Under the pieces are notes generated by a model that saw only the letters and a list, made by a program, of their open reading frames with translations, had not been told where the DNA came from and searched no databases. A stretch of 8,446 nt of DNA. Source: a virus (taxonomy: Duplodnaviria; Heunggongvirae; Uroviricota; Caudoviricetes). Positions 1-8,446 of this stretch are shown in pieces; positions within the stretch are counted from its first letter, which is position 1, and every line of letters begins with the position of its first letter. The DNA lies in the IMG/VR virus record IMGVR_UViG_2684622670_000004, positions 1 through 8,446 of that record; one strand, 5' to 3'. The position numbers and the translations under genes were made by a program.

Positions 1-57
1 TGCACTCCATGTGTTAGCCGTGCTCAACAGGGGGATCTTTTCACCGCTTGTGCCAAG

Positions 58-83
58 TTCTCTTAAACCAAGGTTTAGGATTG
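58..83. other. Candidate cix/gix/hix-type crossover site of a DNA-inversion system (TTCTCTTAAACC-AA-GGTTTAGGATTG)
   Basis: Two imperfect inverted 12-bp half-sites (8/12 complementary) flank a central AA dinucleotide. From memory it fits the hix/gix pattern TTC..T.AAACC.AGGTTT.GGAT (about 19/26 identical to gixL as I recall it). It overlaps the stop codon (75-77) of the adjacent invertase gene. No partner site is present in the window. Confidence 0.5.
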
Positions 84-635
84 AAATGATGACGCAGGAA
101 ACTTTTTATAAAGCGTGGAAACAGCAACATCATAGATGATTGCAACCTGCTTACGGGGGATGCCATTCTCCAGCAATCGACGCATTTGCTGCCATGTTTC
201 TTCCGGGTATTTAGGTCTGCGGCCTCCTATTCGACCTTCTGCGCGAGCTGCATCAAGTCCAGCGCGTGTACGTTCAACGATAAGCTCGCGTTCCATTTCT
301 GCCAGTGCCCCCATTACGTGAAAGAAAAAGCGCCCCATTGGTGTACTGGTGTCGATGGAGTCAGTGAGACTCCGGAAGTTAATTCCTCTGTCACGTAGCT
401 CTTCCACCAGCACAACCAAGTGACGCATGCTGCGCCCAAGGCGATCTAACTTCCATACGATCAGGGTGTCACCTCTGGAAAGCATACGCAAAACCTTTTT
501 TAGCCCTGGGCGTTCAGCCTTTTTGCCGCTCGCCTTATCCTCAAAAATTAGCTCACATCCTGCGCTTTCAAGAGCGTTTCGTTGTAAAGCAGTGTTTTGT
601 TCATTTGTTGATACGCGTACATAGCCTATTAGCAT
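75..635 (-). CDS. cin: Serine recombinase, Hin/Gin/Cin/Pin-family DNA invertase (186 aa)
   Basis: N-terminal catalytic motif GYVRVSTNEQ with the active-site serine. Conserved WKLDRLGRS, SLTDSIDTS, MGRFFFHVMGALAEMERELIVERT and GRIGGR motifs, plus a C-terminal HTH (GIPRKQVAIIYDVAVSTLYKK). The symbol cin is inferred from the P1-like neighbourhood; the family call is firm, the exact orthologue (cin, gin or pin) is not. Confidence 0.9.
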   Translation of the reverse strand: MLIGYVRVSTNEQNTALQRNALESAGCELIFEDKASGKKAERPGLKKVLRMLSRGDTLIVWKLDRLGRSMRHLVVLVEELRDRGINFRSLTDSIDTSTPMGRFFFHVMGALAEMERELIVERTRAGLDAARAEGRIGGRRPKYPEETWQQMRRLLENGIPRKQVAIIYDVAVSTLYKKFPASSFQS

Positions 636-763
636 ATTTTCTGCTCACTATCGTTATTTATAGCAAGCTGCGGATTTTAATTAACAAAAAACCAGTATGT
701 GTGGAAATCACAAAGTACATACCGTTTCCCAATGAGATTTAATTCACTATTGAGGAAATAGTT
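636..763. promoter_or_regulatory. Divergent intergenic control region between the invertase gene and the lysis/dar operon
   Basis: AT-rich 128-bp spacer between divergent genes. Minus strand: possible -35 TTGTTA (plus coords 681-686) and -10 TATAAAT (655-661) with a 19-nt spacer, upstream of the invertase ATG. Plus strand: strong SD GAGGAA at 752-757, 6 nt before the ATG at 764. No clear sigma70 -35/-10 pair for the rightward operon, which would fit an activator-dependent late promoter. Confidence 0.3.
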
Positions 764-1045
764 ATGTTTGATTTCACAATAATGCTCCTCTCCATCCTTG
801 GCGGGGTGCATTCGTTTCTGAATGGGGTTCGTGAAAAACGTTACGAAGCGTCATGCAGGCAATTGATGGCCGAGTGTATTGCTGCCGTACTTGCAGGCTT
901 TATAGGCATGTATTTCGCGGAATATAAGGGTATGGATGAAAGTCTTCAGAATTGCGTGACTATTATTTGCAGCATCAATAACAGGCTCATTCTTGAAAAG
1001 TTACAAAGGATTATCGATTCGTACCTCAGTAGAAATGCCTCTTAA
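764..1045 (+). CDS. Small two-TM membrane protein, holin-like paralog of the downstream LydA-like gene (93 aa)
   Basis: ORF with a good SD. Two hydrophobic segments (FTIMLLSILGGVHSFLNGV and CIAAVLAGFIGMYFA). Clear paralogy to the next ORF (SILGGVHSFLNGVREKR vs SVIGGIGTFLMDVRDGRQ; VTIICSINN vs VTIASNN). Confidence 0.75.
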   Translation: MFDFTIMLLSILGGVHSFLNGVREKRYEASCRQLMAECIAAVLAGFIGMYFAEYKGMDESLQNCVTIICSINNRLILEKLQRIIDSYLSRNAS

Positions 1046-1086
1046 GCAACAAATGACCGGTTGAGAAGTTACTTTGCATACCATTA

Positions 1087-1106
1087 CCTCCTGACAACGT
1101 AGGAGG
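1087..1106 (+). promoter_or_regulatory. Possible SD-sequestering hairpin ahead of the LydA-like gene (CCTCCT-8 nt loop-AGGAGG)
   Basis: A 6-bp perfect stem in which the 3' arm is the AGGAGG Shine-Dalgarno of the GTG-initiated ORF at 1113. Could modulate holin translation. Seen only as sequence complementarity. Confidence 0.3.
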
Positions 1107-1112
1107 GAACTT

Positions 1113-1442
1113 GTGCTTGACACACAGGAATTAGCTCCAGTTGCTATTGCGCTCCTGCTTTCAGTAATTGGTGGGATAGGCACGTTCCTGATGGATGTCC
1201 GAGACGGTCGCCAGTCTGGCAATTTGTTGGGATTGGTTACGGAGATCTGTGTTGCAGTGACAGCTGGCGCGGTGGCGTACCTATTGGGGCAACATGAGGG
1301 CTGGGAGTTATCAATTACGTACTTAATGGTAACGATAGCCAGCAATAACGGTCATGAGGTGATTTCAGGGATGAAACGAGTGAATATCGATAGCATTCTG
1401 AATGTTCTTACAAGTTTGGTGAAAAAGGGAGGCGGGAAATGA
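1113..1442 (+). CDS. lydA: Holin, LydA-like (109 aa, GTG start)
   Basis: GTG start 6 nt after GGAGGG. Two to three predicted TM segments (LAPVAIALLLSVIGGIGTFLM, LLGLVTEICVAVTAGAVAYLLG). Its position immediately upstream of lydB-like/hdf/darA matches the P1 lysis-dar operon as I remember it. The stop overlaps the next start (ATGA). Confidence 0.75.
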   Translation: MLDTQELAPVAIALLLSVIGGIGTFLMDVRDGRQSGNLLGLVTEICVAVTAGAVAYLLGQHEGWELSITYLMVTIASNNGHEVISGMKRVNIDSILNVLTSLVKKGGGK

Positions 1443-1882
1443 TTGGCTGGGGTGTATGCGCTCTTGCGGCAGCCTTAGCTGATCGCTATTTGCTAAAACG
1501 CAAGGACATCACGAATTTAGAGCTTGGTGATGTGGAAATTAAACCGGGATTTATCCGGGTGCCGTTCAAATATCGGTCTAAATTCCCGTTTTTGCGCGGT
1601 GCAACGGTCAGATATTGGATCCGTGATGTTCAGAAGCCGACGACAGTGATTGAAGGCGAACAACGTTGCCTGACGTCGGCTGAACAGGGCGAAAACAGTG
1701 AATGGTTGTACATACCCACTGAATATATGGGTAAAGGAGAACGACTGTGGCATTTCAACGTCATGGTTACGCACGGCGACTCGTTCATTAACCCGTTGTA
1801 TCGGATTTTCCCTGTTACTCAGCAAATCCGCAGAAGTTACGTAATAAATCTCGCACAGGATGTGTCAGATGACGAAAAATAA
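1439..1882 (+). CDS. lydB: LydB-like holin antagonist / lysis regulator (147 aa)
   Basis: Start coupled to the lydA stop (ATGA overlap), with a GGGAGG SD. N-terminal hydrophobic segment (MIGWGVCALAAALA). Size and position match P1 LydB as recalled. Function inferred from synteny only. Confidence 0.65.
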   Translation: MIGWGVCALAAALADRYLLKRKDITNLELGDVEIKPGFIRVPFKYRSKFPFLRGATVRYWIRDVQKPTTVIEGEQRCLTSAEQGENSEWLYIPTEYMGKGERLWHFNVMVTHGDSFINPLYRIFPVTQQIRRSYVINLAQDVSDDEK

Positions 1883-2471
1883 GTATGCAACGGTCGATTT
1901 TGGCCAGGTTAATGAAAAGGGGCTGAAATCCCTTATCGCGGCGATCAATAAAACCGGTGTTACGGTAATTGAGGTTGACTCCAGCAACCGCGCAACAACG
2001 AAAGATGGCGTTAAAGTTAAAACCGCAAAGCTGGTTCTTAACGACGGACAAATTCTTGCCATACAGGTAAACGATACTGGTGATATATCGTCTGTGAAAC
2101 TGAATGGAAAAGCTATTCCTAATGCTCAATCGCCAGATATCAAGACGCTTGGTACCGTCATGGGGCAAGCGGCCCACAAAAACGCTGCAAAATTCCAGAA
2201 ATCACTGATCGCCAAAGCTAAACGTGTTGCCAATCCGGTAGACAAGAAACCGGCAGTTAAATCCAACTTTCAGCGCCTGCAAGAGGCAAAACAGCGGAAT
2301 GCTCAGGTGGTTGCCGCTTATAAATCCGCGCAGAACTCGGTGTCTTTCAATCAACAGCAGATCACTGATTTGCGGGCGAAGCTGGATAAGGAGACAGGTC
2401 GACTCAATAACGAAAAGGCCAGGAATGGCGAACTCAAACGCCGTCTTAAGCAACTGAAAGCAGGAAATTAA
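1860..2471 (+). CDS. hdf: Hdf, homolog of DarA fragment (203 aa; alternative start at 1869 gives 200 aa)
   Basis: Shares alignable blocks with the N-terminal third of the downstream 639-aa protein (LNDGQ-ILAIQ vs LSDGQ-TISIL; HKNAAKFQK vs EKNSAKFQR). C-terminal coiled-coil-like basic tail. The ATG at 1869 sits 9 nt after AGGA and is the more likely start. Confidence 0.75.
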   Translation: MCQMTKNKYATVDFGQVNEKGLKSLIAAINKTGVTVIEVDSSNRATTKDGVKVKTAKLVLNDGQILAIQVNDTGDISSVKLNGKAIPNAQSPDIKTLGTVMGQAAHKNAAKFQKSLIAKAKRVANPVDKKPAVKSNFQRLQEAKQRNAQVVAAYKSAQNSVSFNQQQITDLRAKLDKETGRLNNEKARNGELKRRLKQLKAGN

Positions 2472-2472
2472 C

Positions 2473-4392
2473 ATGGAACAGTTCAATATCAATAAAGGGG
2501 TGACGATTAAGCCGGGGCTTGACGTGCTTCCCCCGCCGGTGACTGATGATGAATATCGCGCATTAATGGCCGGTGAGGACCGCTATCTGATGACGGAATC
2601 CAACACCATGGAGGAAATCGAGGCTACGTTCTTCTATGACACGCCGATCCACTGGTGTACTACGGATTTACTGGAGGCGATTAGTTCTACTCGTTTGCAG
2701 TTACACCGGACCATGCAGGCATTTGTCCGGGCATTGAACCAGAAGCTTAATGGTACCGGAATCTCTGCGGGGAGTGATAAAACGGGGGATGTGGCCCAGA
2801 GCGGCACGCGAGCGATCGGCGGTGCTGAAATTGGCCGGGCACGTAACGTTAACGGGCTGCCGGTCCTGCCAGCCATTATTCCGCTCAGTGATGGTCAGAC
2901 TATCAGCATTCTGTTTCATAGCCTGACAGCGGAAAACCGGATCACCAATAGCGATACGCTGGTTGCTTTCCAGTTCTTACTGAATAAAAAAGACGTTACT
3001 CACACCGTTGCTCCGATGAGTGGACGTGATATGACGCTGGCACAGGTCACCATGAAACTTGCCAACCTTGCAGAGAAAAACTCGGCAAAATTCCAGCGTG
3101 CGCAGAAGAAGAAAAAAGCTCTTGTTGATGAAATAACCCAACTACAGGCTGACAGTGACCAGAAAGAGGATGCCATGAGCGACCTCGCGGATCAGGTGGC
3201 AGCGGTAGAAGGGCTGAAGGCAGATCTGGAGCAGAAAATTAACGCTGTTGCATCGGAAGCGGATTCTCTTTATGAAGAGAATGAGCGTTTGCAGACGGAG
3301 ATTGATCAGCTCAATCGCACAGGTGGGCGCGATACCATTGCTCCAGCGGGGATGACTGGTGGGCACTCGCGCGCGCTGACGGATCGCCTTGCCAGTATCA
3401 AAAATCGTATGCATATGAACGGGGAAGTGACGCTCAGTAATGGTGCATCAATGAAGCAATTCATTGAGGACGGCGAAGGGTATATCCAGTTAACCGATTC
3501 GGATGGCAGCGTGTACATGATCAAGGCTAAATCCATACAGGGTGTGGACATGGCAGATGCGATCGGCAAGCTGTTTAAAGCCTATAAAGCGGGTAATGTA
3601 TCGGAATATCTGGTCCAGCCAGAAGAACATAAACCAGAAAACGTCGAACCTGAACCAGCGGAGGATACCGGTAGCTCTTCGCCTGAACCAGAAGTCTCTG
3701 TAGGTGCATATCGATATGCCCTGCAAATGCGTCCGGCAGCCCCTGGCGCAATACCTGAAGGTAACAAAGCGATTCTGCCGCGCCCAGATGAAGGTGACCC
3801 GTATTATGAATATGCACGCTACGGCATTGCTACTTACGATACCCCGCTTTCTGATCAGCAAATGAGTGAGTACGACCTGAAGTTATTGCCTCGCGAGGAT
3901 TCTTTCGACTTCCTGGCGAAGACACTTACTAATGGTCCGTTTGGCAAATATGCACAAAAAGCTCTGGAGCTGGCCACCAGCTCACCAGACGAGTTCCGCG
4001 TAATGCTGAAAACTCAGTTTCAAAAAACTTTCCCCAATATTGCGTTTCCTGGGGGCGCAGGCACCGAGAAAATGGTGCAGAGCATGATCAATGCATTGCA
4101 GGCCGAAGTCGGTGAGATTACTCAACCAGAACCGGCCCCGGAACCGGCTGATGAAAAGGTTAGCGAAGCAGATGCAGAGGCTAATAAAGCCATTGAATAT
4201 CTCAATAACGTGATGGATATGCAAAGCACTGACATGGCGGAGATCCGCAACGCCAGGGGCAATGTCAGGGAAGCGATTGCTGCCCTTCAGGCTGCCGGAC
4301 GTTTTGATGAAAACGAAGAGCTGGTTAACGGCGCAGCTCGCCACCTGGCTGATCTGCTGGTAGCAATCCAGAAAGCGGGAGTAGCGGCATGA
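2473..4392 (+). CDS. darA: DarA-like capsid-internal anti-restriction / head morphogenesis protein (639 aa)
   Basis: ORF begins 1 nt after the hdf stop, with an AGGAAA SD. 639 aa matches my memory of P1 DarA. Has the internal Hdf-homologous segment, a central coiled-coil (KKKKALVDEITQLQ...EENERLQTEIDQLNR) and Pro/Glu-rich linkers (PENVEPEPAEDTGSSSPEPE; QPEPAPEPADEK). Confidence 0.8.
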   Translation: MEQFNINKGVTIKPGLDVLPPPVTDDEYRALMAGEDRYLMTESNTMEEIEATFFYDTPIHWCTTDLLEAISSTRLQLHRTMQAFVRALNQKLNGTGISAGSDKTGDVAQSGTRAIGGAEIGRARNVNGLPVLPAIIPLSDGQTISILFHSLTAENRITNSDTLVAFQFLLNKKDVTHTVAPMSGRDMTLAQVTMKLANLAEKNSAKFQRAQKKKKALVDEITQLQADSDQKEDAMSDLADQVAAVEGLKADLEQKINAVASEADSLYEENERLQTEIDQLNRTGGRDTIAPAGMTGGHSRALTDRLASIKNRMHMNGEVTLSNGASMKQFIEDGEGYIQLTDSDGSVYMIKAKSIQGVDMADAIGKLFKAYKAGNVSEYLVQPEEHKPENVEPEPAEDTGSSSPEPEVSVGAYRYALQMRPAAPGAIPEGNKAILPRPDEGDPYYEYARYGIATYDTPLSDQQMSEYDLKLLPREDSFDFLAKTLTNGPFGKYAQKALELATSSPDEFRVMLKTQFQKTFPNIAFPGGAGTEKMVQSMINALQAEVGEITQPEPAPEPADEKVSEADAEANKAIEYLNNVMDMQSTDMAEIRNARGNVREAIAALQAAGRFDENEELVNGAARHLADLLVAIQKAGVAA

Positions 4393-4754
4393 CACTATCA
4401 GCTATTGAGTTAATGGACCTCAGCGATAAGTTGGATGCTCTGATGTCCAAAGCTGCTACCGCGAGTGGCATGGAGTTGCTGGATATCAGCGATGAAATTG
4501 ACCAGATCATGCAACAGATGGGGTACGGCGCGTCCGGCGGCGGTAATGGCGAGGAAAAACAACCTTCGGTACATGATGGTATACCAAAACTGGTTGCTGA
4601 TTTCCTGGCTGATAAATTCGTCGATCAGAGCACCGATGCATTTATCGGTACGTTGCAGGACTTAAGTCAATATGTTGGCACATACATCGACCTGGACCAG
4701 GTTAAACAGCACACGGCGGTATGGATAGCCGCCAACATTAAAGAGGCAGCATAA
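4389..4754 (+). CDS. ddrA: DdrA-like small acidic protein downstream of darA (121 aa)
   Basis: Start overlaps the darA stop (ATGA), with a GGGAG SD. Acidic, with a Gly-rich loop (GYGASGGGNGEE). Position and size fit P1 ddrA as recalled. Confidence 0.65.
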   Translation: MTLSAIELMDLSDKLDALMSKAATASGMELLDISDEIDQIMQQMGYGASGGGNGEEKQPSVHDGIPKLVADFLADKFVDQSTDAFIGTLQDLSQYVGTYIDLDQVKQHTAVWIAANIKEAA

Positions 4755-4766
4755 GGCGTAACAGGG

Positions 4767-6455
4767 ATGAGTTTAAACGATCAGATAGTTATGACCACCA
4801 GCAGCGGATACAACGGTGTTGCGCCATATACCAGCTTGTTATTACATCGGGCATCCGGCATCAAAGATATTATTCACCTGATCCGGCTGCTTTCCCGCAC
4901 AGATCCCCAGGATGAACAGCTGGTACAAGTGCTTGCGCATTTTGTCCGAATCCCTGTTGCAGACGTGAAAAAATGGTGTCGATTATTCGGTATCAGCAAT
5001 TCGTTACTTCGCGGATTGTTAAATCACGCATCCTCCCTTGGGCGAGACGGCTTTGATGAGATAGCGCAGGCGATAAAAAACGGAGATATGCCACCAGCTA
5101 TTGACTGGTTTTCCATTCGCCCAACCAGGGTGAAAGCATTCCTTAGCGCGGCGCAATCAGCATCACCATTGGCAGAAATGGTTCAGAGGTTGTCGCTCAT
5201 ATTCACAGATCATACCGCGTTTGGTGATCTGGCTCTGGACGAGATGAAAGAAGCCGCCATTCAGTGGGCCGATCAACAAAATGAGGTTAACTCTGACTTC
5301 TTGCCAGCATTCAGGAAGGCCGTTAGTAAAGCGGATGATGCCCGTGGAATTATGAAGGCATTTAAGGCATTGCAAAGTCGGGTTAATAAACATGCCGGTG
5401 ATATCGATGGGGTAACGGCGGAAGGCCGGGATATCCTGAAAGAGCACGGCATAACGCCAGAATTTATTGATGAGATCAGGACGGATATGCAGCGTGAGGT
5501 CGTATCGTCTCTGCAAATCGTAGCCAGGGCGTTGGCGGATGCTAATCCGAAGAGTGCGGCCATTGTTAACCGGGTTATTGGTGATATTGAAGCATCTGAG
5601 GGCATGGGGGCACTGAAACTCTTCCTTTCGCGAGCGTTTAATCCTAACGGCAATATTCTTCCCGGCATTATTGGTGAGGCTAAAAAGTATGTCAGTGAAG
5701 AAGAACTTGAGCAGCTTGACCAACTACTTAAGCGATTCTCATATAACCCGCAGACACGCTGGCAAATGAATCAGCGAGGTATGGGTTTGGTCCACGAGAA
5801 AGTGTTATCTGCCATGAACAGTGCGATCGCAAACTCATCTGTATCTGAAGAAAAAGCTCTTGAGTGGGCCGACTCTTTTATCACGGAAGAAGTGGAAGAA
5901 GCCCGCGCTGGACAGAATGGTGGGATAGACCTGCGCAAGGAACTTGCTGATATTTATCGCCTGAGCGGCGGGAAAATATCGACCTTATCAAAGGTAGTTC
6001 ACCACCAGGGAAGGGCATATGCAAATCTAAATGGTGTTGTTGCTGTCAATTTGAACGATGAAAATGCAAGTGCACTGTGGCACGAGCTGGGTCATCATCT
6101 TGAGTACAGTAACCCTGGTTTGTTAGAGAAAGCCCGGTCATTCCTGAAGGCCAATGTTGAAGGGGATAAACCATCTTTCGTTAATATCGGTGGGCGTGGC
6201 AAGCCTGAATGGTGCTTCAGATCTCAATTGAGTAATATTTATATGGCGAAGGTATACCCGCCAGTCTCAGTAAGTAACACCGGGAAAATTCGGCAGAAAT
6301 CACCGACTATTTCCAAAACGTCAGCAACGGAAGTATTCTCTATGGCTCTTCAGTTGTATCATGACAAAGAGGCCGCTGCCGCATCACTGATGAATGGTGA
6401 CGGATTGCTGGAACTGTTATTAGGTGTGGCAAAGGAGCTAAATAATGCAGATTAA
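4767..6455 (+). CDS. HExxH-motif putative zinc metallopeptidase in the ddrB position of the dar operon (562 aa)
   Basis: Long ORF with operon-consistent codon usage. Near the C-terminus is WHELGHHLEY (HExxH zincin signature) with downstream Glu candidates (LLEKARSF; NVEGD) for the third ligand. I do not recognise the N-terminal two-thirds. I cannot confirm orthology to P1 DdrB from memory. Confidence 0.7.
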   Translation: MSLNDQIVMTTSSGYNGVAPYTSLLLHRASGIKDIIHLIRLLSRTDPQDEQLVQVLAHFVRIPVADVKKWCRLFGISNSLLRGLLNHASSLGRDGFDEIAQAIKNGDMPPAIDWFSIRPTRVKAFLSAAQSASPLAEMVQRLSLIFTDHTAFGDLALDEMKEAAIQWADQQNEVNSDFLPAFRKAVSKADDARGIMKAFKALQSRVNKHAGDIDGVTAEGRDILKEHGITPEFIDEIRTDMQREVVSSLQIVARALADANPKSAAIVNRVIGDIEASEGMGALKLFLSRAFNPNGNILPGIIGEAKKYVSEEELEQLDQLLKRFSYNPQTRWQMNQRGMGLVHEKVLSAMNSAIANSSVSEEKALEWADSFITEEVEEARAGQNGGIDLRKELADIYRLSGGKISTLSKVVHHQGRAYANLNGVVAVNLNDENASALWHELGHHLEYSNPGLLEKARSFLKANVEGDKPSFVNIGGRGKPEWCFRSQLSNIYMAKVYPPVSVSNTGKIRQKSPTISKTSATEVFSMALQLYHDKEAAAASLMNGDGLLELLLGVAKELNNAD

Positions 6456-6765
6456 AATCGCAGCGCCATTAGGCGGAGATGCCATTATCGAATTTGATGA
6501 TAATGAAGAAGTTTCCGGGCGTTTAAGCATTATCTCCGGTGACATTACCGAGGACATGATCGCTGAAGCCATAGCTGGGGCAAATCCCAATAGCTATATG
6601 GGATTCGTTAACACCCTTGATGCTCCCGCAAGTGATGTTCTCCGAACGCTGCATCTTTACGCTGGCTGGTTTGTTGATTGGCCAGCAGTAGATGGTGGCG
6701 ATGAGGATGATGATGACGATGAAGAGGGTTTTAGTGATGAAACAGTCAACCAACTCTTGTATTGA
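6445..6765 (+). CDS. Hyperacidic small protein, possible DNA-mimic-type anti-restriction factor (106 aa)
   Basis: AAGGAG SD 8 nt before the ATG. Overlaps the preceding stop by 11 nt. About 27 Asp/Glu against 3 Lys/Arg, with a C-terminal DGGDEDDDDDEEGFSDE tract. Last gene of the operon. Confidence 0.7.
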   Translation: MQIKIAAPLGGDAIIEFDDNEEVSGRLSIISGDITEDMIAEAIAGANPNSYMGFVNTLDAPASDVLRTLHLYAGWFVDWPAVDGGDEDDDDDEEGFSDETVNQLLY

Positions 6766-6894
6766 CAGGAATTGGCATAGAATTGATTGTTCAAATTTCA
6801 TCCATCACATAGACGACTTCATGTTATTTGCCTGATAATTATGGCCTTAATAACCCATGTATATCTTTTGGGTTATATTCTTATCTTTAACAAG

Positions 6895-6940
6895 GTTATA
6901 AGAGCGACAATGATAAATTTATCACTATCGCTCTTATAAC
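6895..6940. repeat. 46-bp near-perfect palindrome (21 of 23 base pairs complementary, no spacer)
   Basis: GTTATAAGAGCGACAATGATAAAT / ATTTATCACTATCGCTCTTATAAC. The only mismatches are at 6908/6927 and 6910/6925. Followed by TCTTTGTT. Lies 130 bp downstream of the operon's last stop codon. Confidence 0.85.
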
Positions 6941-6968
6941 TCTTTGTTAGCTATAGCTTTAAACAAAT

Positions 6969-7175
6969 TTAGTTTTGAGGCAATGCAACAAAAGTCAGCT
7001 CTTGATCTTTGATTAATGCTTTTGTTTGTTTGGATGTAATTCCCACTTTAGTTTTTACATCATTGTGGAGCTTCTTATACGCTTTTATTTCATCTGCTGT
7101 ATATCGGAAGCCATTTGCACTGTTACTGGACAGTTGAAGTGCGATTACGTCATCACTGACACCCGCATCGCTTAG
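6969..7175 (-). pseudogene. Start-less 68-codon protein-like open frame, possible remnant of a truncated gene
   Basis: Minus-strand frame translating to LSDAGVSDDVIALQLSSNSANGFRYTADEIKAYKKLHNDVKTKVGITSKQTKALIKDQELTFVALPQN*. It is bounded upstream by an in-frame TAG (plus 7176-7178) and contains no ATG. All three upstream frames are stop-rich. Composition is not typical of random AT-rich translation. Confidence 0.25.
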
Positions 7176-7469
7176 CTATGCGGGTAATAGTGTGGCCTGC
7201 GCGAGTGTTTGTGGTGGATATTTTGTCTAAGAAATTGTTCAGTTTTGCCATTGTTTACAACCTCTTACTTGAGTTTATTGCAAGTAGAATTGCTACTATT
7301 CTTTTGCCTCAACGAATCACAATGTACTGGAATAAGAAACTATGAGCAATACTTACGCTTTGCGAATACAGAAGATGAATAATCAACTTATTACTAAAAT
7401 GTTAATAATATTATTCTGTTACATAGTGTTCGCTATAACAATCGGGAGTTGAATGCTAATTCAATAAAT

Positions 7470-7497
7470 AAAGAACCCGCCAATTGGCGGGTTCTTT
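7470..7497. terminator. Bidirectional rho-independent terminator (AAAGAACCCGCC-AATT-GGCGGGTTCTTT)
   Basis: Perfect 12-bp GC-containing stem with a 4-nt loop. Flanked by a T-run on the plus strand (TTTTTA) and by ATTTATTTATT on the minus strand. Directly abuts the stop codon of the convergent 264-aa gene. Confidence 0.75.
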
Positions 7498-8292
7498 TTA
7501 ATCACTTTCCACTTCTTCCGTGGTGTTTTCTTGCAGTTCTGTTAATGCAGCACGACACAGGTTCCGGGCCTTGGCTATAGCCACACTTTTTACCTCATCC
7601 GTCATTGTGCAGGTAATGTACTGATCGAGTTCTTCAGCTCGGATGATGCTTTTCCCAATCATAAACTCTATTTGCCAGAGCAGATCGGCATCCATCGTCA
7701 GTATTTCAGCCTGGCCTTCTGGGCCTGCGGGGAAGCAAACATAAGACTGTTTTCCCAGGCCGATAACTCGACAACTTGCTTCAAGAATTGCGCGCTTGAG
7801 GTCTGACTTTGTAACGGAAACAGGTTGGTTTTCACCAGTGATTACGCCGTTGACATGGAAGTGGAAGGGCATGTAGCTTGAAATTCGCTCTACTTTCCAT
7901 ACGCCAGCAAGCGATCCTTCATGCAGCACAATGGGGGTAACCGCGAGTTTCATCTCACCATATAACTGCTGGCAGATAGCTGGATTGCTGAATACATCCA
8001 AAGGCTCACATTCAAACAGCGGCGCAATCTGCATGAGGTCCATCATGGTCATCCCTGGGGTCCGAGCAGTAATGAATTTGCGCATGCCAGTATCCATTGT
8101 GCGCCAGATAGCCATACCATGCTTTTTGCTCACTTCTTCAGTAAAACCAAGGTGGCACATGATGGTCTTTTCGATAGCCAGATCAGAGATAGAAACCTTT
8201 TCGCCTGGCACTCCATCATTATTGATGGTCACTTCGACACTCTGGCCATTACGTAGGCGGTATTGAATGGTTTTAGTATTTTGTGCTGTCAT
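7498..8292 (-). CDS. Hypothetical protein, function unknown (264 aa)
   Basis: Long uninterrupted ORF ending at the terminator. Weak SD (GAGAAAAGA) 14 nt after the stop of an upstream partial ORF, suggesting an operon. Contains His-rich segments (PIVLHEGS; MPFHFHVNG) but no motif I can assign to a family. Confidence 0.7.
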   Translation of the reverse strand: MTAQNTKTIQYRLRNGQSVEVTINNDGVPGEKVSISDLAIEKTIMCHLGFTEEVSKKHGMAIWRTMDTGMRKFITARTPGMTMMDLMQIAPLFECEPLDVFSNPAICQQLYGEMKLAVTPIVLHEGSLAGVWKVERISSYMPFHFHVNGVITGENQPVSVTKSDLKRAILEASCRVIGLGKQSYVCFPAGPEGQAEILTMDADLLWQIEFMIGKSIIRAEELDQYITCTMTDEVKSVAIAKARNLCRAALTELQENTTEEVESD

Positions 8293-8306
8293 AGTCTTTT
8301 CTCTGC

Positions 8307-8446
8307 TTAAAAACTGATGTATTGCGCCTTCAGGTTGGTTAGGAATGTTTTCCCACCAGCGAAAGCAATATCTCGGGGTGTTCTATTCGTTGTAGAGTAG
8401 GCCTCTGGTTTGAAGTCATCTCCCCAGCAGCCCCTCGTCAAACCGT
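8307..8446 (-). CDS. 3' end of a minus-strand gene truncated by the window edge (last 45 codons plus stop)
   Basis: Open frame from the window edge to TAA (plus 8307-8309), translating to ...GLTRGCWGDDFKPEAYSTTNRTPRDIAFAGGKTFLTNLKAQYISF*. It is 14 nt upstream of the 264-aa gene start. No start codon is visible because the 5' end lies outside the window. Confidence 0.4.
   Translation of the reverse strand, partial: GLTRGCWGDDFKPEAYSTTNRTPRDIAFAGGKTFLTNLKAQYISF

Follow-up and report, generated by a model that had tools for sequence, protein, structure and literature searches.

The biochemical steps by which the serine invertases Hin, Gin and Cin invert a DNA segment are established knowledge, and in the Min system of p15B six crossover sites and many cassettes are used. 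In Salmonella, Hin is a serine invertase dependent on Fis and an enhancer, which acts at two 26-bp hix sites and whose enhancer is located in the 5' part of the invertase gene (PMC3798978). In phage P1, the invertible C segment is annotated at 32225-36480 (NC_005856), and the exchange of S and S' changes the host range (bioRxiv 10.1101/2022.07.24.501295). The P1 features used in the following comparison rest on the curated GenBank annotation, bioRxiv 10.1101/2022.07.24.501295 and PMC3798978.

The stretch of DNA analyzed here, which is called the window, has a length of 8,446 bp and is a complete draft contig (BBVP01000041.1 of assembly GCA_001514785.1). Taken as a whole, the window shares about 97% identity with phage P1 and with hundreds of P1-like plasmids from Escherichia and Salmonella. 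It is very likely, with a probability of about 0.93, that positions 58-83 are the cixL site of a P1-type Cin/C-segment inversion switch on a P1-like phage-plasmid. A switch made of cixL and Cin is textbook P1 biology, which is already known and is not a discovery; the result places the contig in the cin/dar part of a P1-like phage-plasmid and matters little beyond correct annotation. When phages, plasmids and E. coli genomes were searched by megablast, no record identical to the window came up, and the best match reached 98.6%. Exact-pattern scans returned nothing in genome or metagenome contigs and two non-identical contigs among viral contigs, both of which break off inside the repeat as well; the scan of viral contigs for the right end returned none. 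The coordinates of the features are collected in Table 1.

Table 1. Features of the switch in the window, and the position of an inserted gene in close relatives.
Feature	Position	Strand	Basis
Cin-proximal C-segment end, Sv/Sv' cassette start	1..70	-	P1 alignment, translation match
cixL, Cin crossover site	58..83	.	26/26 bases identical to P1 cixL; unique in window
Central AA, strand exchange point and left segment boundary	70..71	.	P1 annotation, flank homology
cin, serine DNA invertase, 186 aa	75-635	-	Pfam, P1 Cin identity; P1 CDS 31660-32220
Recombinational (Fis-dependent) enhancer of C inversion, by homology	546..617	.	Identical to P1 31678-31749
cin upstream region	644..758	-	P1 annotation transferred by alignment
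Shine-Dalgarno of cin	644-646	-	Homology to P1
P1cin, predicted sigma-70 promoter	about 674-707	-	Homology to P1
P2cin, predicted sigma-70 promoter	about 732-758	-	Homology to P1
gldA insertion (relatives)	L002 12908-14011; L006, L009, L011 about 4625-5729		

As shown in Table 1, the 26-mer TTCTCTTAAACCAAGGTTTAGGATTG is identical to P1 cixL at every base. The site has a layout of 12 + 2 + 12 with an AAACC..GGTTT core, where the half-sites TTCTCTTAAACC and CAATCCTAAACC match at 8 of 12 positions, and the start of the window reads ...GCCAAG TTCTCTTAAACC AA GGTTTAGGATTG AAATG.... The 26-mer is present as a single copy, and matches with three or fewer mismatches appeared in none of 200 dinucleotide-preserving shuffles. 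When a degenerate 26-bp pattern was used to look for further cix sites in the window, two weak additional matches were obtained, which is within chance. The site overlaps the stop codon TAA of cin (75-77, minus strand), which lies within the right half-site. The sequence-only reading of this DNA had proposed a gix/cix-like 26-bp site overlapping the invertase stop codon, and the identity with cixL over 26/26 bases and the position of the TAA bear this out.

The P1 record (NC_005856) annotates the Cin-binding region at 32211-32241 and the cixL core at 32215-32234, which correspond to window 54-84 and 61-80, respectively. According to the same record, the crossover occurs within cixL between nucleotides 32224 and 32225, which are window positions 70 and 71 and form the left boundary of the C segment. 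The homology between the flank of cixL and that of cixR stops at 74/75, and the breakpoint of a rearrangement found in one relative (L007, described below) falls exactly at window position 70. The segment boundary is the central AA (70/71) and not 57/58, and the invertible DNA contained in the window comprises positions 1-70, where the outer half-site (58-69) is inside the invertible segment. The initial assignment of positions 1-57 to the segment was correct in that tail-fibre cassette DNA lies there, and it has to be extended to 1-70 because of the boundary at 70/71.

Read on the minus strand, positions 69 to 1 are the 23 opening codons of a variable tail-fibre cassette, to which one base (70) is added. 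The translation of this part, GLRELGTSGEKIPLLSTANTWSA, is the same as that of the S protein of the relative L010 right after the Sc/Sv junction (...VIQYL/GLRELG..., the slash marking the junction). L010 is a draft contig that is 100% identical to the window over 1-1902 and 99.6% identical over 1-8391. Positions 1-74 of the window align equally with both ends of the P1 segment, the cixL end directly and the cixR end as its reverse complement, and these two P1 ends diverge from position 75 on. Between P1 and window 1-57 there are three differences (at 49, 52 and 55), all of which are at synonymous third-codon positions in the cassette frame. The cassette-start frame and the shared repeat together indicate that a variable tail-fibre cassette begins in bases 1-70, within the terminal inverted repeat. 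The machinery for tail-fibre inversion that had been proposed from the letters alone can therefore be given its P1 names, where the site is cixL, the open reading frame is Cin, and positions 1-69 are the start of the S cassette.

The Cin protein matches the Pfam families Resolvase (5e-51) and HTH_7 (2e-17), the latter as a C-terminal helix-turn-helix. It is identical to P1 Cin at 183 of 186 residues (98%), with the substitutions V59I, Q144P and K157N, and the catalytic Ser9 is present in an intact VRVSTNEQ motif. Among the relatives, Cin with these three substitutions occurs with both orientations of the segment. The closest solved structure is that of Mu Gin (3UJ3, E = 1.6e-88), and gamma-delta resolvase is far behind with E = 3e-32. 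Residues Q150, R153 and L154 of Cin correspond to Q151, R154 and L155 of Hin, where the offset of one residue was taken from the alignment with Hin 1HCR, whose chain we take to begin at Hin residue 139. These three residues of Hin are described as uniquely conserved in Fis-dependent invertases and as contacting Fis or the enhancer (PMC3798978).

The enhancer sits in the 5' part of cin without any difference from P1, whose record labels the corresponding interval 'enhancer of Cin-mediated C-segment inversion'. The Shine-Dalgarno sequence and the two predicted promoters of cin were likewise located by their homology to P1 (Table 1), and a generic promoter scan of the window did not pick up the P1cin and P2cin sites. 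One additional A relative to P1 is found at window position 686, where it lengthens the A-run that separates the -10 from the -35 hexamer of P1cin, and it is also present in L010.

The second site of the switch was sought in ten relatives that have an intact cixL and enough sequence (P1; CP117679, CP117639, CP117661 and CP117572; and the draft contigs L006, L008, L009, L010 and L011). In all ten, exactly one inverted cixR was found, at a distance of 4,256-4,586 bp and inside gene S, and its sequence, TTCTCTTAAACCAAGGTATTGGATAA, is identical to that of P1 cixR. The check proposed along with the sequence-only reading, an inverted partner within several kb that flanks opposed cassettes, thus gave a positive result in each of these relatives (10/10). 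When distinct relative records reaching beyond cixL are counted, 10 of 11 have the full two-site arrangement. In L010, the segment has a length of 4,586 bp with Sv-U and U'-Sv' opposed to each other, and the two possible fibres are one of 972 aa with a gp37_C-type tip and one of 1,136 aa with a Gp53-like_C tip. The cixR partner and the cassettes of the source strain, which would lie off this contig, are inferred from these relatives and are probably of the same kind. If the partner is present in the source strain, the Sc-side end would read ...TTATCCAATACCTTGGTTTAAGAGAA followed by the reverse complement of window 1-57.

A comparison among the relatives gives indirect evidence that the segment flips. 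L006 has exactly the same Cin protein and the same segment (99.7% identical), which is inverted relative to that of L010, L008 and L011, and the endpoints of the inversion between L006 and L010 run precisely from crossover centre to crossover centre. With junction probes, both types of junction were found in complete plasmids, and two E. albertii sister plasmids from one study, CP117639 and CP117572, show opposite junction states. As seen in these records, both orientations of the 4,586-bp segment exist in nature among elements with identical Cin. We infer that the switch is probably active in the source strain as well.

In the proposed mechanism, dimers of Cin would bind cixL and an inverted cixR located about 4.6 kb away inside gene S, off this contig. 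The two sites would then be brought into synapsis at the Fis-bound enhancer in cin (546-617) on supercoiled DNA, where Ser9 of each subunit would make double-strand cuts with a 2-bp stagger at the central AA/TT (70-71). One half of the Cin tetramer would turn by 180 degrees, and religation of the ends would leave the segment inverted. Since Sc and its late promoter lie outside the segment, inversion would exchange the variable 3' cassette that is fused to Sc and expressed along with its matching chaperone, Sv-U for Sv'-U' or the reverse, and the host range would alternate.

The ends of the window are both breaks at repeats. At the left end, the contig includes 74 nt of a perfect 148-bp inverted repeat that belongs to the segment; the ends of an L010-type segment are perfectly identical over the window coordinates -73 to 74, which amounts to 148 bp. 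An independent viral contig (L004) ends 74 nt into the same repeat, and a metagenomic contig (L005) ends exactly 55 nt into it. The distances of 74 and 55 nt resemble k-mer overlaps where a repeat was not resolved, and the most plausible reading of the left end is that the assembly broke at the inverted repeat of the switch, as would be expected for short reads. The tail-fibre cassettes of the source strain must be sought on other contigs, and whenever such an element is assembled in draft form, the orientation given for the segment is either arbitrary or a mixture.

The right end falls within a group II intron that occurs in multiple copies. The last 55 bases of the window (8392-8446, minus strand) are the 3' end of this intron, and they align to the intron copy that interrupts hcaF in E. 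coli M8; there, the Rfam family Intron_gpII (RF00029) is found at L017 3502-3584(-), adjoining ltrA. Relative to L010, the insertion point is inside the stop codon of ssb (...DDIPF T/AA, the slash marking the insertion), with the intron on the same strand as ssb. An Rfam scan of the window did not detect the intron fragment and gave only sub-threshold hits, at a terminator hairpin and a palindrome.

The alternative that survives best, although it is unlikely, is that the source strain carries a relic, in which cixL and cin are intact but no inversion takes place, owing to loss or rearrangement of the partner site or of the cassettes. The DNA upstream of the window is absent from the contig, and the relatives with identical Cin include two with defects in this region, namely L007, where cixL is fused to kilA, and L013, which has an aberrant interior of the segment and a truncated S'. 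Because of the deletion in L007 and the aberrant interior in L013, an intact cixL and an intact cin are no guarantee of an intact switch. However, a deletion of the L007 type replaces the outer half-site and the start of the cassette, both of which are intact and in frame in the window. L010, identical to the window throughout 1-1902, has a complete switch, and so do nearly all of the distinct relative records extending past cixL (10/11, as given above). In addition, the position of the contig end 74 nt into an inverted repeat implies that a second copy of the repeat is present in the genome. These points favor a complete switch of the P1 type over a relic.

The two defective relatives deserve a description of their own. 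In L013 (CP117572.1, 10566-15143), the outer parts of the segment are inverted relative to L010, and the interior (L010 segment 1641-2653) is not. About 235 bp of the segment are missing and about 219 bp are duplicated in inverted form, and the products are a 1,041-aa S' without the normal tip and a single chaperone gene. This odd interior could be the result of a secondary recombination or of an assembly problem. In L007 (10553-10578; GCA_025720475.1, ABIVTB010000020.1), a relative with identical Cin, the homology to the window is lost at position 70. The junction reads CAATCCTAAACC-TT-CATCAAAATGTC, in which the half of cixL on the cin side is followed by the central TT and then by kilA sequence, and the parental site in the kilA gene of P7 (L016 387-412) reads ATATATCAAACC-TT-CATCAAAATGTC. 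The event in L007 looks like a Cin-type recombination with a quasi-site in direct orientation in kilA. Such a deletion would take out about 17 kb in P7 coordinates, with the C segment and tail genes among the DNA lost; the L007 contig has a length of 80.9 kb compared to 92-101 kb for the relatives. The junction between cixL and kilA was found in 0 of 500 matching complete plasmids, and it is a single observation in a draft assembly.

A second candidate quasi-site, TTCAGTAAAACCAAGGTGGCACATGA, is located at window 8137-8162, inside an isaA-like open reading frame (7498-8292, minus strand). Over the left half and the centre of cixL, this sequence agrees at 14 of 17 positions, in direct orientation and with an AA centre, where 0.01 such matches are expected by chance. 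At this site most relatives read AAAGCC, and the window and L010 carry a G-to-A change that brings the sequence closer to cixL. The deletion junction predicted for cixL and the site at 8137 was in no plasmid searched. It is very unlikely that cixL in P1-like plasmids is also a natural hotspot for Cin-driven deletions with quasi-sites; if it were, Cin could remove the cin-lyd-dar block of 8.1 kb in one piece by recombining cixL with the site at 8137.

A further alternative, which is less probable still, is a multi-site system of the Min/p15B type, in which cixL would be one of several sites that shuffle more than two cassettes. There are P1-like plasmids related to p15B, homology to p15B around cin and lydA is noted in the P1 record itself, and the arrangement in L013 is more complex than a single inversion. 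Against this, a half-site scan of L010, L006, L013 and P1 found exactly two cix sites per element, each matching at 24/24 positions. The threshold of the scan was 17/24, a value which shuffled sequence reaches 0.3 times per scan and which no third site reaches. The segment in the relatives carries just two cassettes and two chaperones, as expected for the two-site P1-type switch and not for a system that shuffles more cassettes.

The remaining idea, that the site is a chance palindrome, a resolvase res site or a terminator at the end of a recombinase gene and has nothing to do with inversion, draws on the imperfect dyad symmetry at the gene end and on the match of the protein to the general Resolvase family of Pfam, but it is practically negligible and can be regarded as refuted by the identity with P1 cixL, a characterised crossover site whose 26 bp the shuffles never matched, and by the inverted partner in every relative with an intact cixL and enough sequence, and also by the lack of a T-run as in a terminator, by the presence of a single dimer-binding site without accessory sites, and by a protein that is 98% P1 Cin and far closer to Gin than to gamma-delta resolvase in the E values given above.

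Several other differences were seen between the window, P1 and the close relatives. The ddrB gene (window 4767-6455) is a short allele, which encodes 562 aa compared to 995 aa in P1 and is common to L009 and L010. Where P1 has about 1.3 kb (L001 11303-12606), this allele has 5 bp, and the reading frame is kept. The annotation of iddB falls in the absent stretch, which presumably also accounts for the match of the long alleles to ddrB-ParB (PF18763); no Pfam family is hit by the short protein. In several close relatives, the gene gldA for an Fe-dependent glycerol/propanediol dehydrogenase is located between ddrA and ddrB (Table 1), and it is absent from the window. The same applies to a Tad2-like/DUF2829 gene, which some close relatives have between the isaA-like gene and ssb.

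The interval from isaB to IS1 in P1 is replaced in the window by positions 6766-7497, and the window does not have IS1. A near-perfect palindrome of 46 bp is found at 6895-6940, and a strong hairpin resembling a bidirectional terminator at 7470-7497. A deletion of 5 bp after position 7169 relative to L010 shifts the frame of a 95-aa open reading frame that the relatives have on the minus strand (about 6969-7256).

Compared with the known systems, the locus is closest to Cin/cix of P1. The overlap with the cin stop codon, the crossover position, the enhancer and the frame of the Sc/Sv junction are the same in P1 and in the window or its relatives, and the gene order cin-lydC-lydA-lydB-hdf-darA-ddrA-ddrB of P1 is also that of the window. 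The switch had been noted to sit beside an anti-restriction operon, and it does, where the adjoining dar operon is simply the normal gene order of P1. Within the window, the switch differs from P1 in the three Cin substitutions, which may be conservative, and in the three synonymous changes in 1-57. Outside the window, the segment measures 4,256 bp in P1 and 4,586 bp in the closest relatives, and the terminal inverted repeats measure 0.62 kb and about 200 bp (148 bp perfect), respectively. The cin-proximal cassette of the closest relatives, which has the Gp53-like_C tip, gives no megablast-level match to the P1 cassettes beyond the shared 5' repeats, and their other cassette is only 83% identical to Sv'-U' of P1. 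Because the cin-proximal cassette is unlike that of P1, the host range is not transferable from P1 to these elements.

The Min system belongs to p15B, a P1-related plasmid prophage, and resembles the system of the window in its Cin-like invertase and its tail-fibre cassettes; it differs in the number of sites, which is only two in each of the relatives scanned here. In the Hin system, a promoter segment of about 1 kb that controls flagellin genes is inverted with hin itself inside it, whereas here the invertase lies outside the segment and the segment carries tail-fibre cassettes.

The Gin/gix system of Mu is a switch of the same kind, in which a serine invertase acts at 26-bp sites and the S/U and S'/U' tail-fibre cassettes are opposed, and the P1 record notes that the G segment of Mu has a DNA identity of 92-94% to parts of the P1 C segment. 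The gix site of Mu, TTCCTGTAAACCGAGGTTTTGGATAA, matches the site of the window at 19 of 26 positions and has the centre GA, not AA. The gin gene (35092-35673) starts 67 bp beyond the boundary of the G segment (35025) and is transcribed away from it, so that its 5' end adjoins the site. The overlap of the site with the stop codon had been described as an arrangement of the Gin/Cin type, which holds for Cin and fails for Gin, since the gin gene of Mu faces away from its segment. This arrangement of site and stop codon is therefore specific to Cin, as in P1 and in the window.
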